Source of the DNA: a virus
Taxonomy: Duplodnaviria; Caudoviricetes
Strand: one strand, 5' to 3'
IMG/VR virus record: IMGVR_UViG_3300037067_013225
Span: 128,001 to 192,000 of that record
Length of the DNA stretch: 64,000 nt
The position numbers were made by a program, and so were the translations under genes. This document shows, in pieces, positions 17,027 through 62,699 of the stretch (position 1 is its first letter; every line of letters begins with the position of its first letter). The notes beneath the pieces are model-generated. The model had not been told where the DNA came from. It did not search any database and saw only the letters and a program-made list of their open reading frames with translations.

Positions 17027-17425
17027 TTAAAAATCTATCTCTTGGAAATCCCTTTCCATAAGACTGACAAAATATTTTTCCACGATTTTAATCATATCTT
17101 GTGCGTCGATAATTGTTTTATTTCCGATTGATACTGCGTTGATGGCCTCTTTCATCTCGCGCCACGTTATGGTCCATAGAATATCTGCCTGTCGCTCACC
17201 ATTCGGTGTATATTCGTGCGTCAATGCAGGTGGGCAGTGCTCTAATACTTGTATAAAAAACTCATAATATGGAAAATTATTATTTAACGAGTTTATTATT
17301 TCGCCGAAAAAGAGATCAACGAATTCCCTTTTCGCTATGTCGGCGCGAATAAGGACATTATCATCCGTAATATCTGTTAAATTAATGGTGAGTGATCTGC
17401 ACAGACTGCAATCATCTGCTAGCAT
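17027..17425 (-). CDS. hypothetical protein with C-terminal IDF tag
   Basis: 132 aa ending DFQEIDF-stop. Confidence 0.7.
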   Translation of the reverse strand: MLADDCSLCRSLTINLTDITDDNVLIRADIAKREFVDLFFGEIINSLNNNFPYYEFFIQVLEHCPPALTHEYTPNGERQADILWTITWREMKEAINAVSIGNKTIIDAQDMIKIVEKYFVSLMERDFQEIDF

Positions 17426-17979
17426 TTACTCCACCCACAATTAATACAATATTTACAACCAGCCTCATATACTAGGGACATTTCTGCACATGTAGGACAT
17501 TTCTCTATTTTTTTATTCTTAATATAGAGACTTAATCGTTTCGCTATATGATATGTGATGTTAGAAACGTTATGATCTAGAGAATTTAGCACATCTACCA
17601 CTCGCTCTACTGGAACTTCGTGCCGCAATAATAATGACACGGCTCTACTAAGTTTACCAGTATTCGGTTCGTTTTTTCCCTTAATCTTTTGCTCAGTTAA
17701 AAAGATATCCTCGATACCGAATAGCTTTCCTAGCTCATTCAATCTGTCTATAGCGTCAGATATATTTGCGGATGAATCTCGCGAATTCGTTTTAATGAAT
17801 ACTTCGTAAGGTTTTCCGTTGTGTATATTGATCGTTAAGTACCATTTCTTCCCCTCGGCTCTAATATCGTATGTTTTACCATCCAATACCGAGGGTCGTT
17901 TTTCAACGACACGTTCCATTTGAGCTAAATCACGGTTCACCTGAGAGATATCTGGATCTTCATTTGTCATTGTGCTCAA
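17419..17979 (-). CDS. class II RNR C-terminal subunit (NrdJb/TSCPD-like)
   Basis: WYLTIN..PYEVFI..SRAVSLLLR..CPTC..YEAGCKYCINCGWSKC. Confidence 0.75.
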   Translation of the reverse strand: MSTMTNEDPDISQVNRDLAQMERVVEKRPSVLDGKTYDIRAEGKKWYLTINIHNGKPYEVFIKTNSRDSSANISDAIDRLNELGKLFGIEDIFLTEQKIKGKNEPNTGKLSRAVSLLLRHEVPVERVVDVLNSLDHNVSNITYHIAKRLSLYIKNKKIEKCPTCAEMSLVYEAGCKYCINCGWSKC

Positions 17980-18292
17980 TTTTCACATCCAATATTTGGG
18001 CTAGTTTTTCAAACCACAATAATGCTGTTTCGATATCATTGCTACTACCTAGACAGTGTTGGCGATTATCCTCAAAATGTATCCATAATTTAGCCACATC
18101 ACCTTCTTCGAACCGTAACCCAGAGACTAATTCGTGAGGGCAAAAACCCACCGGGATATTGCCTTCTCCGAATCCCTCATCAAAGAACAATAATTTTGTT
18201 TTTTTAGAGCACACAAAACTGTGTGGCTCTGACAGATTTGTACTAAGGGCCAAAACGCTCTCATTGTCGCAAAAATTATCAATCTTTTTCAT
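17960..18292 (-). CDS. hypothetical protein
   Basis: 110 aa in operon. Confidence 0.45.
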   Translation of the reverse strand: MKKIDNFCDNESVLALSTNLSEPHSFVCSKKTKLLFFDEGFGEGNIPVGFCPHELVSGLRFEEGDVAKLWIHFEDNRQHCLGSSNDIETALLWFEKLAQILDVKIEHNDK

Positions 18293-18815
18293 TCATGATA
18301 TCTCGGATTCTTTTAATTTTACTGGGATTGGTTATATTCCATTTATGCGTATGATCCTCTGAAATAATCAACGGTGTTAGTTCATTCTCGGAAATCTCCA
18401 AAAAGGTCATCCATTCTGGTAGCGCTTTGCGTTGCGATGATACATCCATGTTACGGAATATTTCGTTAAGATCTGCGAATACATGGATATTGCAGTCTTT
18501 CGGTGGTTTTACATTTCGGAAAAACATTTCTACAAAAAGATCCCATACTTCAGTATCAGACATTAGTATATTGTCTGAAATTACATCTTGTACATCGCAT
18601 ATCTCTATGTGTTTGAAAGCGATTTTCAATTGTGCGACGATATGTTTATGTATCTTTGTTACAACTTTACATTGTGTATTCTCGATCCAACTATACATAT
18701 CTGAAAAATCTTTCGGAAATGTAGATGATTTAATCACAGATGTAACGATATTGTCATAGATATCAGGATCTATGTCAATGAATAGGCTTCCAATTGAATA
18801 TGCTAGCGGTTTCAT
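18279..18815 (-). CDS. hypothetical protein
   Basis: 178 aa in operon. Confidence 0.5.
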   Translation of the reverse strand: MKPLAYSIGSLFIDIDPDIYDNIVTSVIKSSTFPKDFSDMYSWIENTQCKVVTKIHKHIVAQLKIAFKHIEICDVQDVISDNILMSDTEVWDLFVEMFFRNVKPPKDCNIHVFADLNEIFRNMDVSSQRKALPEWMTFLEISENELTPLIISEDHTHKWNITNPSKIKRIRDIMNEKD

Positions 18816-19140
18816 TATTTACTCCGATTCCATAAAAACATCCACATATATAATATGCACAATCCGTGTTCTCCGATACTCAACAAGGCACGGCCCTTAT
18901 GATCCGCATCATTTGTCCATCTATTCAGATAGAATGAACCAATAGCCAATCCTCTACCTTTAGATCCTCCCCATACACAGTGAATTAACGCGCCAATACC
19001 GATACCGTATATGCAGAGTAATCCAATAGTGAGATCATAATTTTCAAGCAATCCTACCAAAAACGATATCCATGTCGGTGTATCGATATATAGAAAGAAA
19101 CGTAAGGTTTTGGTTTTCTTATAGTAACCTATTATATTAA

Positions 19141-19416
19141 TCATAGAGCGTCCCATTCATCTTCGCTGAGAGTTACGAACTGATACGTGACGGTTTCACC
19201 ATCGGTCACGGCAGTAACGGCTTGTTGCATATAGTGAACGATATCGGCACAACTAACCAGATCTCGTCCGATGATTGCATCTTCTGGGCATTCGCATAGC
19301 GGTCCTACATATTGGACTTCCTTGCCATTGATGTATAGTTTTTGCCGGTCATAAAAATCGTCATCCGTGTATGAGTAAACTACAAGCTCCATGGTTTTTC
19401 TCTCCTGATGTGACAT
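19141..19416 (-). CDS. hypothetical protein
   Basis: 91 aa with ECPEDAIIGRDL motif. Confidence 0.5.
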   Translation of the reverse strand: MSHQERKTMELVVYSYTDDDFYDRQKLYINGKEVQYVGPLCECPEDAIIGRDLVSCADIVHYMQQAVTAVTDGETVTYQFVTLSEDEWDAL

Positions 19417-20008: not shown

Positions 20009-20010
20009 GT

Positions 20011-24972: not shown

Positions 24973-25602
24973 TCAAAAATCAATTTCTTGAAATTCTTTT
25001 AATTCAGAGTTCAGGGCGGCAATGGCGATATCAGCAAAGTTTATGTTTGGATTAGCTTGTGCGGCACAAAGAGCAGCATGAGCAGCATAAGCGGCAGTAT
25101 GAGCACCACTAGTACCAGCGGCATAAGCAACATAATAAGCAACATTAGTGATACTAGCAGCAGCATAAGTAGCATGAACGGCAGCGTAATAAGCGGCAGC
25201 GGTATTAGCAGCAGCACGAGGATGAGTTTTAGCCCGAAGCTTCCCTGATACAGTTTTGGCAGTCTCGGAGCTTCGATCCGTTCCATCAATCCAGGCATTC
25301 GCCCACGAAACGAACACAGGATCGTTGTACACGGCTAGCGCGCATTGGATCGCAAACCACTGACGCTGAACAAGAGTGAATTCCGGCACATAGGTCTCTC
25401 GCAGAAGTGTGAATTCGCCGTCAAAGCGCAGAAGATTATTTTTCTTGCCAGATGCTTCAAAAATCCTAAGATGTCCGAATCTCTCGAATATGGGGGTCGA
25501 AAGTACAGCTAATTCCGGGTTGGCGTAAGCAAAACCGAAGCGTTTTATGCCGATTTCCCACAAACCATCATTGTTCATGTTTTCGTCTGTGATCACATAC
25601 AT
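24973..25602 (-). CDS. paralog family member 1 (Ala-rich), IDF-tagged
   Basis: shares IFEASG..FTLLRET.VPEFTLVQRQWFAIQCAL..WANAWI.GTDRS with 26420 and 30296; ends EFQEIDF. Confidence 0.75.
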   Translation of the reverse strand: MYVITDENMNNDGLWEIGIKRFGFAYANPELAVLSTPIFERFGHLRIFEASGKKNNLLRFDGEFTLLRETYVPEFTLVQRQWFAIQCALAVYNDPVFVSWANAWIDGTDRSSETAKTVSGKLRAKTHPRAAANTAAAYYAAVHATYAAASITNVAYYVAYAAGTSGAHTAAYAAHAALCAAQANPNINFADIAIAALNSELKEFQEIDF

Positions 25603-25607: not shown

Positions 25608-25754
25608 TCAGAAATCGATCATGGTCAATGGTTTGTCATCCGGAGTATCTGGTGTATCATCGCCAAGGCGCGGCATTCCCATTCCCCATGAGGCGAATGC
25701 CTTAGCCCATAATTTGGGCCAGATATAGTTATCGACGCAATCTTCCGTATTCAT
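25608..25754 (-). CDS. 48-aa IDF-tagged protein (absent from ORF track)
   Basis: MNTEDCVDNYIWPKLWAKAFASWGMGMPRLGDDTPDTPDDKPLTMIDF; GAGGAG upstream. Confidence 0.7.
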   Translation of the reverse strand: MNTEDCVDNYIWPKLWAKAFASWGMGMPRLGDDTPDTPDDKPLTMIDF

Positions 25755-26102: not shown

Positions 26103-26420
26103 TCAGAAATCGATCATTGTTAGTTCTTTATATTTTAGAGATTCGGGTATTAGTGCTTCCAATTTATCTATGCAATCTTGCTTACTTCCTTGATGAAGTA
26201 CACCACCACCACACTCCATCAACATGATAATGTCATTGCGACAAGTATATGCTTTGTAATTACCATCGACTGGTACTATATTCCCATATAAACGGTTGTT
26301 TATATCTACACAGAACAGACAAGAGTCTCTATATTCTGTATACCATGATCTCTCTGTATACCATGATCTCGATCCTTTTTCGCGCATTTCTTGAGGCAAT
26401 TCGTCCCATGATACCATCAT
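26103..26420 (-). CDS. hypothetical protein, IDF-tagged
   Basis: 105 aa ending ELTMIDF. Confidence 0.7.
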   Translation of the reverse strand: MMVSWDELPQEMREKGSRSWYTERSWYTEYRDSCLFCVDINNRLYGNIVPVDGNYKAYTCRNDIIMLMECGGGVLHQGSKQDCIDKLEALIPESLKYKELTMIDF

Positions 26421-27001
26421 TAGAAGTCAATCTCCCAAAATTCTTTTTCAAACCATATCGCTTGCCGTGCAAGATCGGCATAATCTATGCCTGGGATGCC
26501 ATCCGTGGCAGAAACGTAGCTATCAAAATGGAGAGCGCTAGCATAAATGATAGATTTAACGGCCCAAGCGGGGCTAGTATAGAGGAGGGAGTCAAATTTT
26601 CTAATCTCATCGAGAACAGTTTTGGCAGTCTCAACGCTTCGATCCGTTCCATTGATCCAGGCATTCGCCCACGAGACGAACACAGGATCATTGCAGACTT
26701 TTAATGCGCATTGAATTGCAAACCACTGACGCTGAACAAGAGTGAATTCTGGCACATGGGTCTCTCGCAAAAGTGTGAACTTACCGCTAGAGCGCAGAGG
26801 ATGGTTCATTTCTCCCGATGCTTCAAAAATCCTAGGGTGGTCGAATTTCACATATGCGGGTTGTACAAGCACCGCTAGCTCCGGACTGGTATAGGCACGA
26901 CCACAATATATTTCACCGATTTCAACCGGAGTACCATTGGGGATATTCCCAGCTATAACCACATATGAAATTTTCTCACACATATTTAATACGCGCTCCA
27001 T
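26420..27001 (-). CDS. paralog family member 2, IDF-tagged
   Basis: same core as 24973 and 30296; ends EFWEIDF. Confidence 0.75.
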   Translation of the reverse strand: MERVLNMCEKISYVVIAGNIPNGTPVEIGEIYCGRAYTSPELAVLVQPAYVKFDHPRIFEASGEMNHPLRSSGKFTLLRETHVPEFTLVQRQWFAIQCALKVCNDPVFVSWANAWINGTDRSVETAKTVLDEIRKFDSLLYTSPAWAVKSIIYASALHFDSYVSATDGIPGIDYADLARQAIWFEKEFWEIDF

Positions 27002-30000: not shown

Positions 30001-30296
30001 TTATGATACCCTGAGAGATTCTCTGCAAGTAATACTACGTGAGAATATTCTTTGGATTTTTGTTCTTTTTGCTGATTTAATGCTATGTCGGAGAAATAGA
30101 ATTCCGCTCCGAATATGGGTTTGATGTTATGTTTCGATGCCGATTTGTATAATTCTGCAAACGGTGACACAGTTCCATGTTCAGTTAAGGCTACCGCTGG
30201 CATATTTAGTGCGGCGGCTTTGGCGCAAATAGCATCTACACTGCCGAGAGCATCGTTCAAGCTATGTGTAGAATGATGGTGCAACGATATATACAT
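26976..30296 (-). CDS. dnaE: DNA polymerase III alpha subunit (family C)
   Basis: PHP domain (LHHHSTHS, ALTEHG, TNDVH), RGSSASSLV, DIDCD, HASG, KFDFLGL, YQEQ, YAFNMGHA; clamp-motif-like QLNLW. Confidence 0.93.
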   Translation of the reverse strand: MYISLHHHSTHSLNDALGSVDAICAKAAALNMPAVALTEHGTVSPFAELYKSASKHNIKPIFGAEFYFSDIALNQQKEQKSKEYSHVVLLAENLSGYHNLVKLSSIANTEGFYYRPRISWNEIEQHNEGIISLSACVGGLICKLLKDDRALEAEERLQRWNDIFKDRFYLEVQKHPSVDIQEPLNAQIIALAGKYSLPVVATNDVHFVEPSHLDTHKILLSKKQSKKLGDKNFVYVYDESFYFKSEQEMLDQFDDKYVHQSGEIADRIEIFNPSVEDYNLPQFKLNDTVLDEETASTILAAKCALALEKKSLNIPQYNERLKEELKIIADFGFSNYLLIVADELDWCRNNHIATGPSRGSSASSLVNYLCGITAFDPVHYNLDFARFLNEGRIKIENGKRTYTSMIDIDCDISRTGRDRFLEHLSETYGHVYHLGTHLRYTVKTAVKAVGTALGVSATTMNEFTELLTESEPGTRNLVSLDWNIKQKQVADFITRNNLQKVVQLAKPLEGGYSARGIHASGIVMSRTNIDHIVPVRRGDEDAFPVIEFDMESVEKFTKQIKFDFLGLRNVTVIEEAEHFIKQRHAEQIIPEYSDFSDTSVLAAEHGLDNIFQLSSALAQKYYRATNPKNELELADVISIIRPGVSMSGWADQYVKGGFKHKISALNQLLKSSRGIMVYQEQIMEIAKKIAGFTPAKADDLRSACGKKIPEKMALLLDDFEQGAIKNGYTHNQIEYIVKQIKDAALYAFNMGHAMSYAALAYKTLWLKHYFPTEFYCAVLNSYIGKSEEIKGVVNNIRQGGYRLLLPNINTSGQSYTVEYDPDPAIRIGLGGIKGVGPAALKILLELRPFSSVDDFITRVPKRQCNKRVVEALINAGAFDTLCGRDDALSLLTGTTIVTTQDDQAYAEYDVLGDFFTYNPYMAHACFKQLSYIKPSDVLNNIAPHISVIGFVEDFSIEATKKNKSPYVNIIITDGLQNLKAIGFSKVVEEKIDILTRAKKERLPITISGQLSTECGEDGDIYLPSCRVKIQDPSQLNLWEPQGSTLMIRVADEFVEPLLEDLPTGDCDIVIYSVVGRTRREVKTTGYIDEPTLHWLREVYGARIKYV

Positions 30297-30901
30297 TAAA
30301 AATCGATCTCCTGGAATTCTTTTAAGTCAAAGTTTAGAGCGTTGGCGGCGATATCAGTGAAGTTTATGCTTGGATTAACTTCCGCTGCATAATAAGCAGC
30401 ATCAGCAGCAAGAATAGTAGCGTTAGCAGCATAAGCAGCATCAGAAATATCAACAGCACAAGCAGCAGCATTAGCGGCGGCATCAGCAACAGCAACGTGA
30501 GTAGCACGAGTAGCATGATCGGCCCAAAACTTCCCTGATACAATTTGAGCAGTTTTGGAGCTTCGATCCGTTCCATTGATCCAGGCATTCGCCCACGACA
30601 CGAACACAGGATCATCACACACGGCTAGCGCGCATTGAATCGCAAACCACTGACGCTGAACAAGAGTGAATTCCGGCACATAGGTCTCTCGCAAAAGTGT
30701 GAATTCGCCATCAGAGCGCATAGGATCGTTCATCTCTCCCGATGCTTCAAAAATCCTAGGGTGGTCGAACGTCTCGTATATGGGGTTTATAAGTACGGCT
30801 AGTTCCGGGCTGGCGTAAGCAAAACCGGAACGTTTTATGCCGATTTCCCACAAACCATCACTGTACATATCTTCATTTATAATCACGTACATGTTCATCA
30901 A
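30296..30901 (-). CDS. paralog family member 3 (Ala-rich), IDF-tagged
   Basis: full-length paralog of 24973; ends EFQEIDF. Confidence 0.75.
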   Translation of the reverse strand: MMNMYVIINEDMYSDGLWEIGIKRSGFAYASPELAVLINPIYETFDHPRIFEASGEMNDPMRSDGEFTLLRETYVPEFTLVQRQWFAIQCALAVCDDPVFVSWANAWINGTDRSSKTAQIVSGKFWADHATRATHVAVADAAANAAACAVDISDAAYAANATILAADAAYYAAEVNPSINFTDIAANALNFDLKEFQEIDF

Positions 30902-31224
30902 AAATCAATCTCCACGAATTGAATATCTAATGGTGAACTTATACTATTAAGCAGACTGAAGAATTGATCTACATTGATAATGGGAATTTGCCTTCCTTGA
31001 CGATGATTCCACTCGTCGAGCAATTCTTTTTTGGTGCTGTTTTTACAACCTCCCAAAACCAAATAGTCAACATTATAATAATCATACATTCTGTGTATTG
31101 TGGCTTTATGGCGGAAATATTCAGATCCCATTTCTTTATTCTTATCTTTTATGGCATCAATGAGTGTCTGACGCGAATAAATCGTTCTACCGGTAAAGAC
31201 AAACCTCATCAACATTCGTCCCAT
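30898..31224 (-). CDS. stand-alone BRCT-like domain protein, IDF-tagged
   Basis: FVFTG..R..L..VDYLVLG..STK..IPIINVDQF follows the ligase/RFC BRCT pattern; ends FVEIDF. Confidence 0.6.
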   Translation of the reverse strand: MGRMLMRFVFTGRTIYSRQTLIDAIKDKNKEMGSEYFRHKATIHRMYDYYNVDYLVLGGCKNSTKKELLDEWNHRQGRQIPIINVDQFFSLLNSISSPLDIQFVEIDF

Positions 31225-32858
31225 TGCCCATTCGGGTGGATTTTGTATGTTTTGTAAACAGCTTCAGGAAACTGGTCGAAATAGGTTGTGGTCATATAAT
31301 CCTTCATATAAACGACTATGATTTTGGTATTTTTCACATCCAAATTTGTCCAAAACGATCCGTTAAAACATCCATCCGTAAATACATACGCGATACGGCC
31401 ATAGTCGCGATTATAATTGCCCTGATTTGTTAGATGTTCCATCCAACAATCATTTGTTCCACCGGATGTTTGAAATTTGTTATTCGCGATATCGGATTCG
31501 CTGCATTTATAAACGAATGTCGAAAAAGCATATACTTCATCGAAATAATCGATATTATATCGGATAGAATCAAAAAATATCTTATGATATGCATCAGTAG
31601 AGCCGGATACATCAAAATAAGCTGTTACGTAAAGATTCATATCCGGTAATGGACATTTAAAAAATGGTTGATGTACACGCATGGCACCATAAAGAGCTAG
31701 TTTACGATCTTTATGATGGGGGAATACGCGCCTGGTGGAACGATCTCCTCTGATTTTTAGAAAATCCTTTTCTAGTGTTTGCTTTAACCCAACCGGTGTT
31801 GAAACAATTGGAATATCTTGTGTTGGATCGTGATGATATTCGGAGAAAAATTCATCAACTATCTCCTCATACAAAGTCGTGGCTGTTGGATCGCAACCTT
31901 GAGATCCCTTTTTAGCTTTTCTGGTTCCAGGTTTTTGTCCCGACTCAGAAAGTTCCTTCAACGCTTCTGCAATGGCGGATTGTATTTCCGGATCGATAAT
32001 TACATCTGAACCAGATTTGCCGTTTCCACCTTCGCCATCTTGATTGCCGTCTTGCTCATCCTTACCGTTTCCGCCATCTTCACTATCCTCGTTGTTATCA
32101 CAGGGTTCGTCAGAGTCGTCCTCGCCTAGAGTAGCCTGAATTTTGCCATCCTCACCCACCTGTGGTTCACCATGACTACCTAGAAGGATTATCGTGGTAG
32201 TTCCACCTTCCGGCATCGAACCAGAAATGGCCTGTTTTAATTCATACATCGAAACAGAATCTTCGCTATAAAGAGCGTCATAAACTTGTTTCAAGTATGG
32301 ATCGGTAATCTGGCTATTCGGACGCAAAAATGCATAAGGTAATTCGTCTGCTTTGTAGAGTTTTTCAAACATGGTTTGAAATTCTGGTTGCAGGTTGTAC
32401 TTTTTGCAAATGACGCTATTTACTACCGCATCATATATGATGTTATCCAACATTAGTTCTTGAGAAGATTTCTTTTCGGGTTTGTTCAAGATATTCATGT
32501 GGCCTAATGCGCTATGCATGACCTCATGAATAATTAATGTTGTGAATTCGTAAGCATTGATCTTGTTTTCTACCAGGAATTCTTCGAACACTTCCATGGT
32601 AAGATTTCCGGGTTTGGCAATGATTCTAGCCGTTTTGCCATATATAAGATTGCTTAGATATTTGTTTTCCGGAGAATCGATGGGAATCATTCTGATATTG
32701 CAAATGCACACCAGATTATATAGTGCAAATTTGTAATCTTTGACAAGATTCAAAAATGTATCATAAAATAGATCCCATTGTCCTGCCTGATATGGTGTTA
32801 GCGGGTCCATATTATTCCTTTGATGCAAAATAATCCTTATATCCGGGGTAAACGACAA
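31209..32858 (-). CDS. HExxH metallopeptidase-like plus VWA domain protein (DUF2201-like)
   Basis: HEVMH, acidic Gly-rich linker, MIDAS DVSGS..SGGT..FTDG. Confidence 0.8.
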   Translation of the reverse strand: MSFTPDIRIILHQRNNMDPLTPYQAGQWDLFYDTFLNLVKDYKFALYNLVCICNIRMIPIDSPENKYLSNLIYGKTARIIAKPGNLTMEVFEEFLVENKINAYEFTTLIIHEVMHSALGHMNILNKPEKKSSQELMLDNIIYDAVVNSVICKKYNLQPEFQTMFEKLYKADELPYAFLRPNSQITDPYLKQVYDALYSEDSVSMYELKQAISGSMPEGGTTTIILLGSHGEPQVGEDGKIQATLGEDDSDEPCDNNEDSEDGGNGKDEQDGNQDGEGGNGKSGSDVIIDPEIQSAIAEALKELSESGQKPGTRKAKKGSQGCDPTATTLYEEIVDEFFSEYHHDPTQDIPIVSTPVGLKQTLEKDFLKIRGDRSTRRVFPHHKDRKLALYGAMRVHQPFFKCPLPDMNLYVTAYFDVSGSTDAYHKIFFDSIRYNIDYFDEVYAFSTFVYKCSESDIANNKFQTSGGTNDCWMEHLTNQGNYNRDYGRIAYVFTDGCFNGSFWTNLDVKNTKIIVVYMKDYMTTTYFDQFPEAVYKTYKIHPNGQWDEC

Positions 32859-33486
32859 CCATGAAATTTGGGTGCTTCAGTTTTGTATTTTTGTTATTGG
32901 TAAACTCTGGGACAAAGAACCCATACTCACCTTCCTTGTTAAAGTAAGTGTGGGACAGTAAGTGTCCGGTTTCTTCTGCACTCAATATATTGGGCAAAAG
33001 CTGTGCTGTTGCGAAGGTTGCATCTTCCATGGCAACGACCAGAACCAAATCGGAATTATTGAACGTTTTGATATTTTTACTGTGAGAGGGGATGAGATTG
33101 TCTCCCAAATTAATACCCCACGTTGGAACAAACGATGCATTGATCAGATGAGATGATGCACCTAGCGGATCAATATTGAACTTTACCGTACCATTCGCTT
33201 TTTGAATCCAAATTCCACATTTTTCTTTCAATTCGTCGCTATCAAAATCCTGACAATAAAAGAATTGCGGATTGGTGAAATCTTTATTGCAGATGGTGCA
33301 ACTTAGAAATGATTTTAGCTTTGTGTTGGCGATTTCGACGGCATCCAACGAGTATCCTAAAAATACTCTTTTGTCTGATGTTTCGAAGTACAGTGTGCCA
33401 TTGGGCTTATTATATGTTACTTTTGTCGGCTTGCCAGAATCGACAATTGTACTTGCGTTGTTTGAGAGTGTTTCGGCGATTAACAT
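32812..33486 (-). CDS. hypothetical protein within the AAA/VWA module
   Basis: 224 aa with CTIC; TAATG-coupled to the AAA gene. Confidence 0.55.
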   Translation of the reverse strand: MLIAETLSNNASTIVDSGKPTKVTYNKPNGTLYFETSDKRVFLGYSLDAVEIANTKLKSFLSCTICNKDFTNPQFFYCQDFDSDELKEKCGIWIQKANGTVKFNIDPLGASSHLINASFVPTWGINLGDNLIPSHSKNIKTFNNSDLVLVVAMEDATFATAQLLPNILSAEETGHLLSHTYFNKEGEYGFFVPEFTNNKNTKLKHPNFMVVVYPGYKDYFASKE

Positions 33487-35036
33487 TACGCTTCCTCTTC
33501 GTCTCTGAATTTTTTAAGAATAGTGAACACTTCTTGCTGGCTATTACTATCCAGTAGGCATGAATCAAGAATGTGATTCGATAACGATTGGTTGTAGATC
33601 TTTGCAGGTTGTCCTTCGATAATCTTATTATCGAGTAATTGCTTCGGATCAAGATTGTTCTTATTGATGTACAATCCCATAGCGAGTCTCAGGAATTTGC
33701 TCGTGTAAGGTTCGTTAGAATATGATCTGATCTGATGACCATATTTGAGAAAGATCGATGTACCGAATAACTCAATAGCTTTTCCGATAGAATTTTTGTC
33801 GAAAATACCCTTGTTGGTAATGGCGTGAAGCGCTAGAGCGATTTCTTTTGCGGATGATGTATTCTTTTTAACGCCATTTTCTCTCTCCGCAACACCGAGT
33901 GCATGCTGGTAGATTTGATTCATCAATTCCTTGTTCTGATTGATCTCGTCATCTCTTTTGGCTTGCAAAACCATTTCGATTGGATCTTCGATGGTGAAGT
34001 ATTTGGCTGTAGGTTTCGTTTGATCAATGATTCTTTCCAAACTCGCCACAACGGAAGTCTTAATTTTGTTGAAATCTACACCCTTAATCTCCGTTGCTAG
34101 TTGCGGCATGGAAAAATATACGATCCGAGATAAAAATTCCGAATCTCTTAACTCGAAGCTTCCACCGGATTTAATCTTCCGAATAATCAGGCCCAGTTTA
34201 ACATTGGTGGCGATTCTATTTGCGCGACGACCATCAATATGAAAATCTCCTCCGGAATTCAGCGATTGACACACATCTACTGTAAATCCGTCTGTGCCGA
34301 ATTCGTTATTATGATATGATTCTCTAACTTTGTTCAGAAAACCAATCAGCCTTTCGGAACGTTCCACAGGTTCAGCTTTTTTCAGTAATGGCGAATCCTG
34401 ATATCCCACATTAGATACAACGCGAGTCCTATCTTCCAAAGCCAATTCGGAGAATTTGGGGAATGGAATGAACATCGAGAATCTATCCGCTAAAGCGTTG
34501 TCTAGTGGTGATGTACCTCGCTCGGATAGTTGGTTTTGTGCCGCAAAGATATAGTCTAGCTTAAGTTCCACGCCTGCACACATTCTATCCTGGATTAGTT
34601 GCAACATTAGATTTTGTACATCATATTTGCAACGATTAACCTCGTCAATAAACAAAACACGCTTGTCCCAGACATTAATTGGTGTGTCGGCGAACTCCAA
34701 TTTAAATCCGGGACTGACATTCTCGATACCGGGAATCTGATTGATGTCTTTGCCCATCAATGAAGCAAGACCCTTCAATAGAAACAGTTCTCGGTTGAAA
34801 TTATCATCTGGAACCGGATATCCCACGATATCCTCATAATTCATTGTAGGTGCCGAAAACTGTGCCACATCGGTTGCTTTGTAACCGAGTAGCCGCGTCA
34901 GGTTCCTAATAAATAGGGTCTTTGCCGTTCCGGGTGGGGCAATCAACAATAATGGGTTGCCGTCCGCTAGAGGAATCAACAGGTAGTCCTCTAGTGCTTT
35001 TAAGCCGTAAACTCTGGTTTCGTTTAAAAATTCCAT
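33486..35036 (-). CDS. MoxR-like AAA+ ATPase
   Basis: PPGTAKT Walker A, LFIDEVNR Walker B, AAQN, PLDNALADRF, DGRR. Confidence 0.85.
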   Translation of the reverse strand: MEFLNETRVYGLKALEDYLLIPLADGNPLLLIAPPGTAKTLFIRNLTRLLGYKATDVAQFSAPTMNYEDIVGYPVPDDNFNRELFLLKGLASLMGKDINQIPGIENVSPGFKLEFADTPINVWDKRVLFIDEVNRCKYDVQNLMLQLIQDRMCAGVELKLDYIFAAQNQLSERGTSPLDNALADRFSMFIPFPKFSELALEDRTRVVSNVGYQDSPLLKKAEPVERSERLIGFLNKVRESYHNNEFGTDGFTVDVCQSLNSGGDFHIDGRRANRIATNVKLGLIIRKIKSGGSFELRDSEFLSRIVYFSMPQLATEIKGVDFNKIKTSVVASLERIIDQTKPTAKYFTIEDPIEMVLQAKRDDEINQNKELMNQIYQHALGVAERENGVKKNTSSAKEIALALHAITNKGIFDKNSIGKAIELFGTSIFLKYGHQIRSYSNEPYTSKFLRLAMGLYINKNNLDPKQLLDNKIIEGQPAKIYNQSLSNHILDSCLLDSNSQQEVFTILKKFRDEEEA

Positions 35037-35433: not shown

Positions 35434-36337
35434 TATCTATAAACATATTATAGATATTTTCTTTATAAATAATTATTACGCTTTACAAAAAAATGACGGT
35501 CAGTTTATTCTGGCGCGGGATAGAAATAAAAATGATTTGCAAATCACACCGGATTTAATTAAATCGGCGATTTGGGATAAAAAGATTATTCTTGGCACAT
35601 ATACGATATCTAAGAATAATGAGTGCCAATGGTTGGCATTGGATTTCGATAGAGAGGGATCTGTAGCCAAATTGAGATCGCCAGTATTCGACACATATAA
35701 AAAAGCCATCAATTACGGATTGAAACCATATTTGGAATTTTCTGGACACAAAGGTTATCATTTGTGGGTATTTTTCGACAAAATGCCATCCGAGGTGGTT
35801 TGGAAAGCGGCGCAAGTATTGGGCGACGGTATAAGTGGAGAAATATTCCCTCGTCAATCATCGCTAACAGCCATATATCCTTACGGAAATTTGGTGCGAT
35901 TACCCGGATGCTTAAATATAAAGTCTGGTGCGTCAACTCAGTGGCTCGGCTCTAATATGTTACCTATATCAGATCAGGTAGGATATTTTACCAAATTACA
36001 AAAAACATCTCGTGATAAGATAGAGCGGCTTGCTGAACAATGCGTTCTTTCTCCCGATGATAAACGACAAATCGTATTTAATCCTGCTGCCAAAATACAG
36101 ATATCCAATCCGATGTTCCGTATTACTAAGGATCGGCATCGTCATGACGCGCAATTCCCGTTAATTATGAAATGTCTTGAAGCGGGATATAATCATGAGC
36201 AAATTCTTGAAATAGGAGGCGAATGGCTGGATTGGTATTCGGGAGTATATAAGAGCGATTATAATAAAGCTATGTCTGATTTTATCAAGTCCCTCAATTA
36301 TTGCGAAAATACTTATGAGGTTAAAAGAGCCAAATAG
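35420..36337 (+). CDS. archaeo-eukaryotic primase (AEP)/primpol
   Basis: WLALDFD, EFSGHKGYHLWVFF, EIFP, GNLVRLP. Confidence 0.8.
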   Translation: MIKYDIYKHIIDIFFINNYYALQKNDGQFILARDRNKNDLQITPDLIKSAIWDKKIILGTYTISKNNECQWLALDFDREGSVAKLRSPVFDTYKKAINYGLKPYLEFSGHKGYHLWVFFDKMPSEVVWKAAQVLGDGISGEIFPRQSSLTAIYPYGNLVRLPGCLNIKSGASTQWLGSNMLPISDQVGYFTKLQKTSRDKIERLAEQCVLSPDDKRQIVFNPAAKIQISNPMFRITKDRHRHDAQFPLIMKCLEAGYNHEQILEIGGEWLDWYSGVYKSDYNKAMSDFIKSLNYCENTYEVKRAK

Positions 36338-36977
36338 AATGGATAGAATAGATCAAATTAAATGTTTGGATAATCTTGGTAGAGCCTTTGTGGTTGAACC
36401 TTCTTTTTCAGGTGCGGCATATAGGATCTTCAAAGACTGCCAAGTTAATAGTATTGGTTTATTTCCCAAAGATGGAGGAATATTTTGCGGTTTAATCGAT
36501 AAAACCACCATTACTGTTGCCGTGGAGGCATTTAATGAGGCAGTACGAGATGGCACATTGGGTGATGAATATATCTGGTCAAGACTTTCTCATTATGCGA
36601 AATTTCTCAATGAAGTAGCGTATTTTTATAATCAGGGACTTTATAATTATTTTTTGGGATCCAAATATCCTACCATGATTGTCGCTCATGTTTGGGGTAC
36701 CGGTGTGGTGGATGGCGGTTTTATGGCAGAAAATGTTCCATTATATAGATGTGATTTTGCGAAAATTGACGCATCTCCGCAAAGTAAATTGGCATGGGTA
36801 TTGTTTAGCGAATTATTCTTTTGGTGCGATTTCCTCAATCACATACCATTATATAACGGTGATGGATTGCATAAATATTTAAAGCGGTTATATGCATATA
36901 AAATATTGGAGGCATGTGGTTATGACCTGACGAGCTTTATTCATAACGAATCCGAAATGCAAATGATTGATTTTTAA
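36315..36977 (+). CDS. hypothetical protein, IDF-tagged
   Basis: 220 aa ending EMQMIDF. Confidence 0.7.
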   Translation: MRLKEPNRMDRIDQIKCLDNLGRAFVVEPSFSGAAYRIFKDCQVNSIGLFPKDGGIFCGLIDKTTITVAVEAFNEAVRDGTLGDEYIWSRLSHYAKFLNEVAYFYNQGLYNYFLGSKYPTMIVAHVWGTGVVDGGFMAENVPLYRCDFAKIDASPQSKLAWVLFSELFFWCDFLNHIPLYNGDGLHKYLKRLYAYKILEACGYDLTSFIHNESEMQMIDF

Positions 36978-38947: not shown

Positions 38948-39734
38948 AAGTGACGATATGAAAGCGCGAAATATTGAGTTGGCTGATTGTCCGATAATTT
39001 ATGATGCGCTAAGAAACAAGACCAAGGAATTAATTGAAAAGGCCATATCTGTTGTCGATGGCAAAATGATTGTGGATACATCGATTATCGAAATGACTGT
39101 GGCAGACAAAACACGGAAAGGTTATGATACTACTGGATTTCGATATCAGCGGCTTATTGATATTCTAAATGAAACAGTTGGTTCCAATCATTGGCGTGCG
39201 GAATCGGAAGTAATTGAACGTGTAATGCCGGATTCGGGATATCTGAGTGTAGCAATGAAGGTTACGGTGCAGATTGGCAACTGGATGCCGGGAGATAAAC
39301 CATTTTTTGATATTGTGGATTCCAAGTTCTGCTATGGAACCGGCAAAAGTAAAGATCTCGGTGATACATATAAGGGTGCATTTACTAATGGATTCAAAAA
39401 AACAGTATCACAATTCGGTTTAGGATCGGCAGCATATACGGGTGAATTGCATAAATTGCTACAATTGGAAATCCCTGAATCGGACGATGAATACGATGTG
39501 TCTGAGGAGCCTAAGACAGCGACAGACAAGGGTGCAAAAAAGACCACGCCCAAGACCACAAAGAGCGAATCGGATTGCCCACCAGTCGAATATTATTGCC
39601 AAGTAACACAAAAACCCATTTCACTCAAGCAGGTTCAATATTGTGAAAAGCAGGGGTTTATTCCAGTAGATTATACGGTAATTGTTAAGCACCGTAATGC
39701 AGGCACACTTGATGAAATCAAGGCAAAGGAATAG
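38916..39734 (+). CDS. Rad52/Rad22 (Sak-like) single-strand annealing protein
   Basis: IDILNETVGSNHW..YKGAFTNGFKKTVSQFGLG. Confidence 0.7.
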   Translation: MRRANMAAKDKSDDMKARNIELADCPIIYDALRNKTKELIEKAISVVDGKMIVDTSIIEMTVADKTRKGYDTTGFRYQRLIDILNETVGSNHWRAESEVIERVMPDSGYLSVAMKVTVQIGNWMPGDKPFFDIVDSKFCYGTGKSKDLGDTYKGAFTNGFKKTVSQFGLGSAAYTGELHKLLQLEIPESDDEYDVSEEPKTATDKGAKKTTPKTTKSESDCPPVEYYCQVTQKPISLKQVQYCEKQGFIPVDYTVIVKHRNAGTLDEIKAKE

Positions 39735-48320: not shown

Positions 48321-49193
48321 ATGCTCAAACAATTTATTGAAGGTAGGCCGTTGTCGGCCACCAATATGAAAACATTCGCGTCATGTCCCCGCCGTTTTTA
48401 TTATAAAATGACTGGCGTACCAGAAGAATATATCGGGAACCAATTATTGCTGGGTGGTGCATTACATTCGGCGGCAGAGACGTTTTTTAGAAACAAGAAT
48501 TATCCCGTACAGGTTGTTGTGGGCAATTTTATTCTGGATTATGAATCGCGATATGACGCATATAAACAAGCAGGTCAAAAGGTATTTTATCGCAGCGGAT
48601 CGCCCCGTAAAGACAAAGCGGAAGGTGCAGGTATGTTGGAGGGATTTTGCGAGGAATATAGATCCCTGCCATGTGTAGAGCCGGAATGCGAGATGATTGC
48701 GGACGTAACAATTGATGGTTATACGGTGAGACTTTATGCCGGTATAGATGTGGTTGTAGAAGATGCAGATTATTTTGGTATATACGATATCAAGAGTGGG
48801 AAATCTGCGCCAACCGATATCTACTTAAAGCATGACATGCAATTGGGTCAATACGCATATGTATTTCGACATGGAAGTTTTTGCACCTTAGACAAACAGA
48901 CCAAGCAACTGACAAGTAGAAAGGCTCTATTTGATCCACTATCCAAGCCTCTCAAATATAAAGGTATTTACAACATACGCGGATATCTAAAACAGCCGTT
49001 TACATCACATCAGGTGGAATTTCGAACCGAAGAATTTGATGAGGATAATTTTTTATTAACGTTACACGCCCTAATAAAAGAAATGGAGCTATATTCCCAG
49101 ATCAATTATTGGCCTAAACGCGGTATTGGATCTGTTCACGATTGTTCTTGCGCATATTGTTCCTATAAAGAGAAGTGCCAAGGGGAAGTGTAA
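48321..49193 (+). CDS. PD-(D/E)XK exonuclease (RecB/Cas4-like)
   Basis: SCPRRF, GGALH, AGID, IYDIKSG, QLGQY, C-terminal CAYCSYKEKC. Confidence 0.8.
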   Translation: MLKQFIEGRPLSATNMKTFASCPRRFYYKMTGVPEEYIGNQLLLGGALHSAAETFFRNKNYPVQVVVGNFILDYESRYDAYKQAGQKVFYRSGSPRKDKAEGAGMLEGFCEEYRSLPCVEPECEMIADVTIDGYTVRLYAGIDVVVEDADYFGIYDIKSGKSAPTDIYLKHDMQLGQYAYVFRHGSFCTLDKQTKQLTSRKALFDPLSKPLKYKGIYNIRGYLKQPFTSHQVEFRTEEFDEDNFLLTLHALIKEMELYSQINYWPKRGIGSVHDCSCAYCSYKEKCQGEV

Positions 49194-49516
49194 TGTGTTA
49201 TGCTCACCATCATATTGATGGGTATTATGATTTCCCGCTGCACCGGATATGGATTACTATCTATTTGTGGGGATCTAAATCTGGGCTATCTTTTGATTGT
49301 ATCGAATGTCATGAGTTAAATTCTAATCGGTATAAAATGACCACAGACGAAATAGATTCGTTTGATGTAGATCGTTTCCATATCTTTTTTCAAAGCAATT
49401 TAAATATAGCGGGACTTATTTCCTCGACTATGTTGAAAGAGTATTTTTATGAACAATGGAAACGTGACAACGAGCCTCTAATGGATTGTAGTCGGTGGAT
49501 GGAGATCGATTTTTGA
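49175..49516 (+). CDS. hypothetical protein, IDF-tagged
   Basis: 113 aa ending RWMEIDF. Confidence 0.7.
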   Translation: MPRGSVMCYAHHHIDGYYDFPLHRIWITIYLWGSKSGLSFDCIECHELNSNRYKMTTDEIDSFDVDRFHIFFQSNLNIAGLISSTMLKEYFYEQWKRDNEPLMDCSRWMEIDF

Positions 49517-56390: not shown

Positions 56391-56828
56391 ATGGAACGTA
56401 CCAATATGGATCGATATAAATTATCAGATTTGGTATATTTTGCGGATGGAACTCCATTTAATACGGAAAATTATCAGTCTAGATATATAACGTCCGTGGA
56501 GGAATGGAAAAAGATCGTCCTTATGTATCCGCCGTTAGGATATCCGCATGGAACAATTTTGCACATAATAATAAATCAGATAGACGGATATCCGATACGA
56601 TACGTAACATACAATGGACGAACAGGAACATACAATCCGTCACCAGCAGTAAGAGGAATTGATCCTGGCACATCGGAAATGAAAATCGGTTATTCAGATA
56701 GAGGCACATTATATGATGTTACTTTGCGTTTAGGTGGCACTCTAGATAACATTATCGTTTACGAAATCATCCCCTCTTATAATGCCATTATGTATCCAGC
56801 ACCAACACTAACGGAAATTGATTTCTAA
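56391..56828 (+). CDS. hypothetical protein, IDF-tagged
   Basis: 145 aa ending TLTEIDF. Confidence 0.7.
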   Translation: MERTNMDRYKLSDLVYFADGTPFNTENYQSRYITSVEEWKKIVLMYPPLGYPHGTILHIIINQIDGYPIRYVTYNGRTGTYNPSPAVRGIDPGTSEMKIGYSDRGTLYDVTLRLGGTLDNIIVYEIIPSYNAIMYPAPTLTEIDF

Positions 56829-57148
56829 TGCAGCAAGGTGACGAAAAGATATTCCTCATCAACGAGAAAACATATATTACTCGATATGATTATATGGATA
56901 AAACTAATCCCAATTGTATGTGGAATAAATATGTGATTTTATCCGAGCCTTATTACTCATGGCGCAAAAAATATATATTCTCATATGTGGAAGAACAGTA
57001 TGAGAATCCGTCTAATGTTCGCGTTACTGTACATTTACATTATAATATTGTTATAGCTGAGCGAACGATTGATGAAACTATTGGTTTATTGGAACATTTT
57101 TATAAAGATTTTGGTAGAGCCGAAGACATGGTTATGATCGATTTTTAG
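56828..57148 (+). CDS. hypothetical protein, IDF-tagged
   Basis: 106 aa ending DMVMIDF. Confidence 0.7.
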   Translation: MQQGDEKIFLINEKTYITRYDYMDKTNPNCMWNKYVILSEPYYSWRKKYIFSYVEEQYENPSNVRVTVHLHYNIVIAERTIDETIGLLEHFYKDFGRAEDMVMIDF

Positions 57149-58453: not shown

Positions 58454-58816
58454 ATGACTACAACTGAAACTAGTTTTTTGACAAAAAATATTTCATTTGG
58501 TGTTGACGATATCGCTGCCAGAAATCGATTTCGACTGATTCATGTGGCTTCGGAAGGGGGAGATACCGCTTGTACGGCATCTATTGTGGGAAAACTTGGT
58601 GTTGCAATGCTGCAACAGATATCTTGTTATTCTACGGAAAGCACCGCAACGTTATCTATAACTTATGGAACTACGGTTGTGTGGAAGCAATTAGTAGGGA
58701 ATACTTTTCGTTGTATCGATATCAAGATTCCCAACACGCAGGGAGAAGATGTTACGATATCATTAAGCGCATCAGGTGCGGGTAGTTATTTGGATGTTAC
58801 GTGGGTTTTGGTTTAG
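58454..58816 (+). CDS. hypothetical protein
   Basis: 120 aa, GGAG RBS. Confidence 0.5.
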   Translation: MTTTETSFLTKNISFGVDDIAARNRFRLIHVASEGGDTACTASIVGKLGVAMLQQISCYSTESTATLSITYGTTVVWKQLVGNTFRCIDIKIPNTQGEDVTISLSASGAGSYLDVTWVLV

Positions 58817-59118
58817 AAATCTATCATTTCATATTCGAATTCGAATAAATTTATGATGAAGTTCATGTAAGTATAATGGTTTTCATTGTCCCATACATAA
58901 TCAACACAATAATACGTGTTATTCTCGAATGTAATATACATAGGTACAACATCACCTTCGGTTAGCATCCATCCATCTTGTATATAGATTGCTACACTGA
59001 ATATCTGATTGTATATATCCAGTGGTAATAATCCGAACGATAGATATCGGCATTCGTGCAAATCAGTCGGAACAGGAAGCGGATGTACCAGTATATCTTT
59101 TTTAAGCTTATACATCAA
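58813..59118 (-). CDS. hypothetical protein, IDF-tagged
   Basis: 101 aa ending EYEMIDF. Confidence 0.7.
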   Translation of the reverse strand: MMYKLKKDILVHPLPVPTDLHECRYLSFGLLPLDIYNQIFSVAIYIQDGWMLTEGDVVPMYITFENNTYYCVDYVWDNENHYTYMNFIINLFEFEYEMIDF

Positions 59119-59513
59119 AAATCAATTTCCTGTAATGAATCCGCTTCAGGCTCTACCAAATCTCGCAGTAAGCACATGGTTTCTCCAGTCATTACATTTG
59201 AGGCAGTTTTCATATCATCGGAAAACCACTTTGTGTTGCGACGGCATTGATACCATGGTTTCTTTTCTGGATGATATTCTCTAACATCAATCCAATCATC
59301 GGGATTTCCATCCAGGGGTAGGATATTTTCGAAATTGGCTAACTTGGTGAATAAAGCTATCACAGCATCAGCGCTACCCCCCGAATGTTCCTGAGATGCG
59401 AATAATTCCATCAAATGCATTACACTGAGACGAATCAGACCGTCGTAATCTTCGTCGCCAGTCCCGGCATATAACAGGTCAAGCTCTCGCTGTGCGTGCT
59501 CTATTAAACTCAT
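59115..59513 (-). CDS. hypothetical phage protein, IDF-tagged
   Basis: 132 aa, MSLIEHAQREL..QEHSGGSA; ends SLQEIDF. Confidence 0.75.
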   Translation of the reverse strand: MSLIEHAQRELDLLYAGTGDEDYDGLIRLSVMHLMELFASQEHSGGSADAVIALFTKLANFENILPLDGNPDDWIDVREYHPEKKPWYQCRRNTKWFSDDMKTASNVMTGETMCLLRDLVEPEADSLQEIDF

Positions 59514-59810: not shown

Positions 59811-60431
59811 TTGCCGGGAGTAAAAATGCGTAATGCGCTAGAAATATCGGAACCGTTAATGCGTTTTGATTCCAGTTCCGGCGCAGCATGGATATATGAT
59901 GATATTACAACACATACAGTATTGGAAGTTAGTCGATTTCTGCGCGAAACATATGAAGCGCCAGTATTACAAATAGATATAAATAATAATCACGAACGGC
60001 GCGACATCATCCTGGAGATTATGTCCGGTGGTGGATGTGTCAAGAGTGCTCTATCAATTTACGATATGTTACGACGCACTTCCGAAGCGTTTAAACGTAA
60101 TGTTGCAAAACCACATATCATTACGGTGGGAGTGGGATTAATTGCATCTAGCGCCACTTTAATATTCGCTGCCGGTGATCAACGTCTAGCATACAAACAT
60201 ACAACATTTTTATTCCATCAACCAGAAATATTGGGATTATTTGGCGTTTCTGAACGCATCGCCCGTGAGGGCGAATATTTGCAAACGATAGAAACACAAA
60301 TGACTGCGATTTATAATTCCGTTATTAAAAAGAAAGGTATTGATATTGCGAAAAAGATTAAGGCAAAATCGGATCTTATTATTTCCGCGCAAGAAGCGCT
60401 TGAATGGGGATTGGTTACGGAAATTTTGTAG
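59811..60431 (+). CDS. ClpP-like serine protease (S14); likely start 59826
   Basis: IMSGGGCV..IYD, GLIASSAT (Ser), FHQP (His), SDLIISAQEALEWGLV (Asp). Confidence 0.85.
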   Translation: MPGVKMRNALEISEPLMRFDSSSGAAWIYDDITTHTVLEVSRFLRETYEAPVLQIDINNNHERRDIILEIMSGGGCVKSALSIYDMLRRTSEAFKRNVAKPHIITVGVGLIASSATLIFAAGDQRLAYKHTTFLFHQPEILGLFGVSERIAREGEYLQTIETQMTAIYNSVIKKKGIDIAKKIKAKSDLIISAQEALEWGLVTEIL

Positions 60432-61478: not shown

Positions 61479-61485
61479 GATCAAG

Positions 61486-61878
61486 ATGCCAAACGAATTA
61501 TATGATGCATTATATTCGGTAGACTATTCTGGCCCTATTCTAATTACAAGGCACAAATTCTTTACGGATGTTTTTCCTTTAGGAATCGTTTTTTGGTTTG
61601 AAGTGGGAAGGATGCGCGACGGAAGAAACACTCTGGACATCCATTACAAACTGGTAGATAGCTCTTATCGATATGCCAAGTTTGCTGCCACATATCATGT
61701 TTTCGGATATTGTGTGTGGGAGAGGGATCATTCTGTGTGTGATTTTTATCCAGCCCAGACCTCAGATTTTGGTCTTGATAGATATATGTTATCGAAAGAC
61801 GAACTTTTATCGCACATTAATAATTGTCTTAGCAAATATCTGACGGATTCAGATCGGTGGGTGGAAATTGATTTTTAG
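61486..61878 (+). CDS. hypothetical protein, IDF-tagged
   Basis: 130 aa ending RWVEIDF. Confidence 0.7.
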   Translation: MPNELYDALYSVDYSGPILITRHKFFTDVFPLGIVFWFEVGRMRDGRNTLDIHYKLVDSSYRYAKFAATYHVFGYCVWERDHSVCDFYPAQTSDFGLDRYMLSKDELLSHINNCLSKYLTDSDRWVEIDF

Positions 61879-62206
61879 CATGGAAGAAATCGTGTATCAT
61901 TTCTATGCATTAGATAGCGTACATCCCATAGATTTGGGAATATTTTCCAAATTGGGATATGTGCCGGATTCGTGTTTTATGATAGAGCCATCACAAACAT
62001 ATGACGAATGGATGGTGTATGGATTCGGCCCAAAACGATTACAAGGTTATGCGGGTCGCGGCAATTTGGCACCATGGTTTTTTAGAACTGCCGATAAGCC
62101 AACTTTTAATATTGAAGCGGCAAGTATTGAATCGCTTCTTTTGGCTATAAATGATTATATGATCGGTAGACACCCCATAAAAGAGTGGCAGGAGATTGAC
62201 TTTTGA
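61868..62206 (+). CDS. hypothetical protein, IDF-tagged
   Basis: 112 aa ending EWQEIDF. Confidence 0.7.
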   Translation: MIFSMEEIVYHFYALDSVHPIDLGIFSKLGYVPDSCFMIEPSQTYDEWMVYGFGPKRLQGYAGRGNLAPWFFRTADKPTFNIEAASIESLLLAINDYMIGRHPIKEWQEIDF

Positions 62207-62457
62207 ATACGTTGGATTTGCGCGCTCTCGATATCGGAACATTAGTTTCGACTAAACGTGGATGTGTGTTTATTAAATTTGCTTCAGTTGATAGATCCTG
62301 GTGTAAAGACGAAACTGGCATATGGTACCATCATTGTAATACAATGGGAAACATATGTGCAAATTATTCTGACGAAGTATTATTTAGCGATCAAGAAATC
62401 GCTTCAAAGCATGTAAAACGATTTTATGAAATGCATTATGAGGAGATTGATTTTTGA
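62203..62457 (+). CDS. hypothetical protein, IDF-tagged
   Basis: 84 aa ending HYEEIDF. Confidence 0.7.
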   Translation: MNTLDLRALDIGTLVSTKRGCVFIKFASVDRSWCKDETGIWYHHCNTMGNICANYSDEVLFSDQEIASKHVKRFYEMHYEEIDF

Positions 62458-62699
62458 CAACTCAAGATTTGCGCAATGCGCGGATAGAAACAATCGTATA
62501 CCTGGAATGCGGATGTAGTTATGAAAAACGGTCAATATTCCATTGGATTAAATGTAGAATCGATAGCGATTATGAATTTACCGTTCGATGCTCCCATCCA
62601 TATCGAATGATCCTTACCAACTGCGAACTGGCGCGGTATGCTGTGGCGTTTGTTCCATCGGTCGTACCGGACAGAGAATACGTCATGATCGATTTTTAA
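62454..62699 (+). CDS. hypothetical protein, IDF-tagged
   Basis: 81 aa ending EYVMIDF; N-terminus resembles that of 62203. Confidence 0.7.
   Translation: MTTQDLRNARIETIVYLECGCSYEKRSIFHWIKCRIDSDYEFTVRCSHPYRMILTNCELARYAVAFVPSVVPDREYVMIDF

Follow-up and report, generated by a model that had tools for sequence, protein, structure and literature searches.

Shared C-terminal peptides that dock proteins on a partner are known from several systems, among them the tail of the single-stranded DNA-binding protein (SSB), clamp-binding tails, degrons and the type 1 peroxisomal targeting signal (PTS1). In phages T4 and RB69, clamp-binding ends dock several unlike proteins on one ring, the gp45 clamp. Short C-terminal tags on unlike proteins are also a hallmark of degrons such as ssrA, and C-terminal cargo peptides load encapsulins of the HK97 fold. 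Here we describe a C-terminal tail, in its short form hydrophobic-x-[E/M]-[I/V]-D-F-COOH, that is carried by dozens of proteins of an uncultured phage known from an IMG/VR viral contig (IMGVR_UViG_3300037067_013225, hereafter G000; 202,677 bp, 40% G+C, estimated 91% complete). The window, that is the whole stretch of 64,000 nucleotides studied here, comprises bases 128001-192000 of this contig, and positions below are window positions unless marked otherwise. Docking peptides of this general kind are established, and the present motif was not found described: our literature search returned no paper that combines 'EIDF' with phage and none on a C-terminal tag common to unrelated phage proteins, in agreement with the initial annotation of the window, which knew of no such system.

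The shared tail is real and its frequency lies far beyond chance. Greedy non-overlapping gene calling over the whole contig yields 294 genes (95% coding), and 46 of them, 16% of the proteome, end in [IV]DF; when all open reading frames (ORFs) of at least 40 aa in the contig are considered, 43 end in IDF and 7 more in [EMWT]VDF. The chance expectation for C-terminal [IV]DF, derived from 18 internal occurrences in 64,752 residues, is 0.08. The asymmetry is just as strong for [EM][IV]DF, with 45 terminal and 3 internal occurrences, and the reversed motif is not found at the C-terminus of any G000 protein. Over the 46 tails, the profile reads [DE]-[KR]-E-[LFYWM]-[QVT]-[E34/M11]-[I40/V6]-D46-F46-stop, with a hydrophobic residue at position -6, Glu at -4 in 34 tails and Asp at -2 in all 46. 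The initial annotation had listed 19 such ORFs in the window and had estimated that far fewer than one IDF end should arise by chance. Our figures agree with this estimate, and the coordinates, strands, lengths (48-220 aa) and terminal hexamers of the 19 ORFs all match on recheck; tabulating C-termini across the whole genome shows, however, that a count of 19 understates the set.

The tail is not a DNA signal. Ile is encoded by ATT (21), ATC (16) or ATA (3), Asp by GAT (42) or GAC (4) and Phe by TTT (26) or TTC (20), all three kinds of stop codon occur, and synonymous choice in the tails tracks genome usage. The DNA that flanks the tails shows no conservation, and the distance to the downstream gene is the same for tagged and untagged genes. 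A degenerate DNA 12-mer is present in 61 copies, 47 of them followed by an in-frame stop, and a codon model trained on long genes scores the annotated frame best in 46 of 46 tagged ORFs. These results bear out the earlier proposal that codons vary freely and that the peptide with its free carboxylate is the target of selection, save for two minor biases: GAG is preferred at -4 if the following gene overlaps, which fits a Shine-Dalgarno role, and TAG stops are scarce (2/46). Because of these biases some nucleotide-level constraint exists, and they are the points that speak for gene ends that carry a nucleic-acid signal, or one for translation, in place of a protein tag. Such a signal is nevertheless extremely unlikely, given how the synonymous positions, flanks and gene spacing behave and given that a relative (G001, see below) replaces residues of the peptide by similar ones (E>D, I>L, D>E, F>I). 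The same judgement applies to a common homologous C-terminal domain, an explanation that the initial annotation had itself raised as a way for the tag to fail: only 6-9 residues are common to the carriers, and the bodies that precede them are unrelated.

The carriers are soluble, acidic, mostly small and mostly unrelated proteins. Sorted by BLAST, their bodies make up 36 unrelated groups: a family of 11 members, two pairs and 33 singletons. None of the 46 carriers has a transmembrane-like segment, compared with 31 of 166 other small proteins, and their median isoelectric point is 4.9 versus 6.1 in other small proteins. The 11-member family is DUF7666 (PF24703), with nine tagged and two untagged members; the paralogue trio that had been singled out as an exception among unrelated bodies is real and forms part of it. 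One further carrier is a 474-aa radical-SAM enzyme, and the others gave no match in Pfam or PHROGs.

Comparison with homologues shows that the tail is a portable, lineage-specific addition. DUF7666 homologues from other metagenomes (n=109) end at ALxW/Y-x-E/K, the ancestral end, without the tail; two of the 11 G000 paralogues end likewise (ALAWQE and ALSWQE), and the other nine extend by ~10 residues (...FDLKEFQEIDF). Tagged paralogues in the window, all on the minus strand, are a 209-aa protein ending FQEIDF (24973..25602), a 193-aa protein ending FWEIDF, whose gene overlaps the end of the DnaE gene (26420..27001), and a 201-aa protein ending FQEIDF (30296..30901). An AlphaFold2 model of the last of these, built from an 80-sequence alignment, reaches a pLDDT of 92, with a last helix at residues 181-189 and the end of the fold at about residue 189; confidence drops over the last 11 residues (pLDDT 55-60), which is why we regard the tail as a flexible stub. 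Searched against the PDB, the DUF7666 fold gave zero Foldseek matches at E<=0.001, and its best VIA Z of 7 is within the noise for helical proteins. The radical-SAM carrier behaves in the same way: all but its last four residues (up to 470 of 474) align with a homologue from Salmonella phage Arash, whose end reads YYERTK where the G000 protein has NWQEIDF. Whether homologues elsewhere lack the tail was a check put forward in the initial annotation, and both the 109 DUF7666 homologues and the Arash enzyme do.

Relatives of the phage carry a related tail in a different spelling, a second comparison that had been proposed and that we ran on one large contig (G001) and three short ones (L023, 14 kb; L024; L025), the latter three stemming from an exhaustive protein search. 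G001 is a contig of 220,861 bp with terminal repeats and 32% G+C; its portal protein is 52% identical to that of G000, and the two share 106 genes in conserved order. No G001 protein ends in EIDF and IDF ends are not enriched; 15 of its 366 proteins, against 0.18 expected, end in the shifted form [DE]-[LI]-[DE]-[IVLF] (DLEI, ELEI, DLEV, DLDV and so on). The only carrier with a detectable orthologue, a 108-aa protein (30898..31224, minus strand), is 32% identical to its G001 counterpart (E=5e-10), and the pair aligns to the last residue, FVEIDF over NVDLEI. A reading of this ORF by eye as a BRCT domain received no backing from Pfam or a PDB profile search and was dropped.

Genes in matching positions show the same shift. 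Just downstream of the TSCPD/RNR genes, G000 has a 132-aa protein ending FQEIDF (17027..17425, minus strand) and G001 two small genes ending DLEI and DLEV; directly after the AEP primase gene, a 220-aa protein ending MQMIDF (36315..36977, plus strand) faces FELEI in G001; and after the PD-(D/E)XK nuclease gene, a 113-aa protein ending WMEIDF (49175..49516, plus strand) faces GELEI in G001 and SDIDL in L023. The gene before a conserved ~310-aa protein ends GDLEI in G001, KEVDL in L023, FEVNL in L024 and GDLSL in L025, and near this position G000 has a 158-aa ORF (53502-53978, plus strand) that ends FELED-TGA and is untagged. Another frame inside this ORF reads ATTGATTTG (I-D-L), which may be a lost or shifted tail. 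From these sequences, an old tail of the form [ILV]-[DE]-[FLIV]-COOH, present clade-wide on a handful of replication-module proteins, has drifted conservatively between phages, and G000 has copied it onto ~40 further proteins. Since the motif shifts together in all carriers, tag and reader appear to co-evolve. Searches of viral contigs for more relatives (with a DUF7666 paralogue, the portal, the capsid protein and the zincin-vWA protein described below as queries) returned G001 or nothing, and no further relative came from metagenome and genome contigs searched with query A4 or from GenBank phages searched with an 8-kb stretch of the window (24000-32000), the capsid protein, the zincin-vWA protein and MoxR.

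The carriers are encoded among early and replication genes, as their promoters, their overlaps with other genes and their absence from the structural blocks indicate. The replication region encodes RNR, DnaE, an AEP primase, a sigma factor, a Rad52-like annealing protein, DnaB, a DnaC-like loader, SbcCD, a PD-(D/E)XK nuclease, a clamp-loader-like AAA+ protein and RecA. Carrier clusters sit downstream of consensus host-type promoters (TTGACA-17-TGnTATAAT), and several carriers overlap, run in the same direction as, and are translationally coupled to the genes for DnaE, primase and RecA. As the initial annotation had stated for the core enzymes and the structural genes, the tag is not present on DnaE, DnaB, RecA, RNR or SbcCD, nor anywhere in the head, packaging or tail blocks. 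The remaining tagged ORFs of the window include two on the minus strand that end LTMIDF, of 48 aa (25608..25754) and 105 aa (26103..26420). On the plus strand stand proteins of 64 aa (FQEIDF, 39734..39928), 85 aa (FVEIDF, 39933..40190), 145 aa (LTEIDF, 56391..56828) and 106 aa (MVMIDF, 56828..57148), followed on the minus strand by proteins of 101 aa (YEMIDF, 58813..59118) and 132 aa (LQEIDF, 59115..59513). Four tagged genes lie directly after recA on the plus strand, encoding proteins of 130 aa (WVEIDF, 61486..61878), 112 aa (WQEIDF, 61868..62206), 84 aa (YEEIDF, 62203..62457) and 81 aa (YVMIDF, 62454..62699). Directly after the last of these is a near-perfect host-type promoter, TTGACA-17-TACAAT (62700-62740), and similar TTGACA sites occur directly 3' of two DUF7666 genes elsewhere in the genome.

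We propose that the tail is a peptide tag, probably read by one common partner. It has been appended to, or has overwritten, the last residues of at least 46 proteins; extending past the folded body as a flexible segment, it would offer this single partner a pair of hydrophobic side chains, an acidic residue that never varies and a free carboxylate to grip, and the partner would thereby treat many unlike proteins as one group. A portable add-on that changes in step in a relative is what one would expect a docking or sorting code to be. The initial annotation had proposed such a code together with one receptor: the code is favoured by selection on the peptide and its free end, by the diversity of carriers, by the add-on nature of the tail and by its shift in G001, while the receptor is the part that we infer.

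Our preferred reader, which we name tentatively and consider possible rather than likely, is a MoxR-class AAA+ ATPase acting with a zincin-vWA partner. The ATPase (516 aa, 33486..35036, minus strand) matches PF07726, PF07728 and PF20030; the partner (549 aa, 31209..32858, minus strand) combines an N-terminal HExxH motif with a C-terminal vWA domain whose MIDAS, the metal ion-dependent adhesion site, is intact, and it has no Pfam match. Both proteins are conserved in G001, the MIDAS residues (DVSGST ... GGTND ... TDG) and the zincin motif (HE[VI]MHxALGH) are kept in both orthologues of the partner, and one operon is common to MoxR, zincin-vWA, two tagged genes and DnaE. The ligands LDV, IDS and LET of integrin type bind the MIDAS of I-domains, and the [IL]-[DE]-hydrophobic core of the tail is similar. 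MIDAS sites bind extended peptides via an acidic ligand, and zincin peptidases are associated with small proteins that diverge fast while a peptide at their C-terminus stays conserved (PMC7159879); in addition, NorD uses its two final residues to dock on the MoxR ATPase NorQ (PMC13036017). By this mechanism, the Asp or the carboxylate of the tag would complete the vWA MIDAS metal, with Ile and Phe on its flanks, and tagged proteins so captured would be remodelled, trimmed or cleared by the ATPase and the fused metallopeptidase. It could even be that large phages own a proteome-addressing system, in which a portable tag on dozens of fast-evolving early proteins is read by MoxR/zincin-vWA via the MIDAS and the two drift in step, although we rate the likelihood of this general form as low.

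Several points weigh against a common partner and against this candidate in particular. All readers named here are candidates, the genome is metagenomic and its carriers are known here from sequence alone, and the co-variation rests on few genomes, G001 being the only large relative besides the three short contigs. At -4, Met replaces Glu in a quarter of the tags, so that a charge is not required there, and the L024 and L025 tails have N or S at the penultimate position, where an acidic MIDAS ligand could come only from the carboxylate. The majority of tagged genes lie far from the MoxR/vWA operon, which only two carriers adjoin, and for the MoxR/zincin-vWA pair of jumbo phages the published proposal is a role in virion assembly (PMC7824862). 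Co-folding of the whole zincin-vWA protein, Mg and Zn with the last 37 residues of a DUF7666 carrier gave ipSAE values of 0.06 and 0.00, a result that weighs neither way.

The initial annotation had suggested capsid loading, localisation to a replication hub and timed proteolysis as uses of the tail, and these must be weighed against the same evidence. It could be a C-terminal degron, by which tagged early proteins are cleared on schedule by a ClpP-family serine protease of the phage (206 aa, 59811..60431, plus strand; PF00574, E=4e-22). This gene lies beside recA among the tagged genes and is conserved in G001, the Ser-His-Asp triad of its product aligns with solved ClpP structures, and the early type of the tagged genes, like the hallmark named above for ssrA, would suit timed disposal. 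The [ILV]-x-[FLI] core of the tail moreover resembles the IGF/LGF/VGF loops that dock Clp ATPases on ClpP. Yet neither of the two AAA+ proteins of the phage has an [ILV]G[FL]/IGF-like loop conserved in both G000 and G001, the tag is acidic and not of the LAA type, and the best PHROG and nearest GenBank phage matches of the ClpP-family protein are head-maturation proteases. That conserved replication-module proteins retain the tail clade-wide is also a better fit to docking than to disposal. We consider a degron rather unlikely, whether ClpP works with a host unfoldase (ClpX, ClpC or ClpE) or takes the tag directly in its hydrophobic pockets. A ClpP 67% identical to the phage protein was seen in the search and no contig was found for it. 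The ClpP of jumbo phages has been read as aimed at host proteins (Iyer et al., PMC7824862).

Alternatively, the tag might dock its carriers on a replication and repair hub, the reader being a pocket on the phage DnaE, SbcC, a clamp or another fork protein. In its favour are clade-wide tails on the products of genes that adjoin those for the primase, the PD-(D/E)XK nuclease, RNR/TSCPD and DnaE, three positions shared with the SSB tail (an acid at -4, Ile/Leu at -3 and Phe at -1 with a free carboxylate), a PF00436 search of the genome that found no SSB gene, and a 309-aa AAA+ protein (57494-58420, minus strand) that matches a phage clamp-loader family (phrog_168, E=4e-21) and, weakly, RuvB domains. 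The phage also has an ATP-dependent DNA ligase (PF01068/PF04679; L005:10141-11079, minus strand, genome 86138-87079) whose end, KYEIDI, is a near-match with Ile for Phe; its G001 orthologue ends KYNIDK. Three proteins in unrelated IMG/VR contigs (47-53% G+C) end exactly in QEIDF-stop: a RecT-like annealing protein whose tail follows a Pro-rich linker (L031:4444-5340, plus strand), a DNA cytosine methyltransferase (L029:2859-3722, minus strand) and a 186-aa protein (L028:3787-4344, plus strand). Each may use a similar tail for a single client, and the first two speak for a hub of this kind. However, no match to the clamp families of DnaN or gp45 (PF00712, PF02768, PF02916, PF09116) was obtained in G000 or G001, DnaE itself is untagged and ends IKYV, the motif has Asp where the QL[SD]LF clamp-binding consensus needs Leu, and it is difficult to picture a replisome that carries ~35 tiny orphan proteins of early type plus nine copies of DUF7666. 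Docking on such a hub seems to us rather unlikely. A conserved 317-aa protein (54242-55192), considered as a clamp candidate, gave a helical model of low confidence (pLDDT 51) and was rejected; in the same hunt, a 216-aa protein (51598-52245) looked NUDIX-like. A signal for loading into the capsid or virion, like encapsulin cargo peptides or the capsid targeting sequence of T4, would make the carriers packaged and co-injected proteins, a use that the initial annotation had listed. The resemblance of the ClpP-family protein to head-maturation proteases, the cargo peptides of encapsulins and the virion role proposed for MoxR/zincin-vWA would be in keeping with it; the early and replication setting, with its host-type promoters, its overlaps with the DnaE, primase and RecA genes and zero tagged genes in the head, packaging and tail blocks, counts against it and makes it very unlikely.

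A few observations outside the tagged set deserve mention. An eleven-gene block (genome 70972-82945, L004/L005) is 32-71% identical to G001, all genes but one reaching at least 46%; it is more conserved than almost all else, including the capsid protein (62%), and is inverted and relocated in G001. A LAGLIDADG homing-endonuclease-like gene (L004:6274-7338, plus strand; genome 63274-64341) directly follows the putative major capsid gene, and a LAGLIDADG-like gene occupies the same place in G001. A second common tail occurs on three small proteins, FNLDLTDI, FNPDLTYI and AKDTFTDI (L001:3879-4112, 5497-5736 and 16435-16692), which may represent a small paralogue group or a second motif. Finally, the heptamer GGCTCTA/TAGAGCC is found inside a terminator-like hairpin (L002:7199-7228).

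If one partner does read the tail, ~16% of the phage proteins, nearly all of unknown function, become one addressable group. A six-residue peptide could then capture the reader, and the reader could in turn reveal the role of the set, be it turnover, remodelling or recruitment. The MoxR/zincin-vWA pair, which is widespread, or the ClpP genes of large phages would gain a testable client list, and a short transferable tag with its matching reader could also serve as a tool.

How the G000 tail relates to the known systems can be seen by comparing them in turn. Like the SSB tail (DDD[IL]PF-COOH) and the acidic, Phe-ended tails of T7 gp2.5 and gp4, it is short, acidic and flexible; the terminal Phe, the Ile/Leu two residues earlier and the free carboxylate are the expected contacts, and one type of pocket would read the tail. 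The SSB system nevertheless has one tailed protein and many readers, whereas G000 has ~46 unlike carriers and presumably one reader; the SSB tail has Pro at -2, where G000 has an invariant Asp (46/46) and a hydrophobic residue at -6, and the G000 carriers are not OB-fold SSB proteins. The clamp-binding C-termini of T4 and RB69 (polymerase MFDF, gp33, gp55) are similar in that unlike proteins share a hydrophobic and acidic end, MIDF being close to MFDF, yet the G000 polymerase is untagged and the carriers, mostly tiny orphans, outnumber any known clamp toolbelt. With ssrA degrons the tail has in common one short C-terminal tag on unlike proteins, a free carboxylate that matters and a ClpP-family gene in the genome; the G000 tag, unlike ssrA, is encoded in each gene and not added by tmRNA, and it is acidic with a Phe end. 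PTS1 (SKL-COOH, read by Pex5) likewise marks proteins across a proteome with a C-terminal tripeptide whose free end is read, although the G000 phage has no known compartment, and the class II PDZ ligands (hydrophobic-x-hydrophobic-COOH) find their like in the I/V-D-F of the 46 G000 proteins and the L/I-D/E-I/V of G001; no TPR or PDZ reader was detected with Pfam or PHROGs among the ~80 phage proteins scanned, a part of the proteome. The vWA-MoxR systems, to which our preferred reader belongs, differ from G000 in that its motif matches neither FxSxx nor RxD nor an acidic run, the types described for them, its carriers are dispersed with no single adjacent precursor gene, and its radical-SAM enzyme is itself tagged. 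They resemble it in the presence of MoxR and zincin-vWA proteins with intact motifs and of a radical-SAM enzyme, and in the pairing of small, fast-evolving proteins with a conserved C-terminal peptide, which in G000 takes the form of 33 singleton carriers and an invariant tail.

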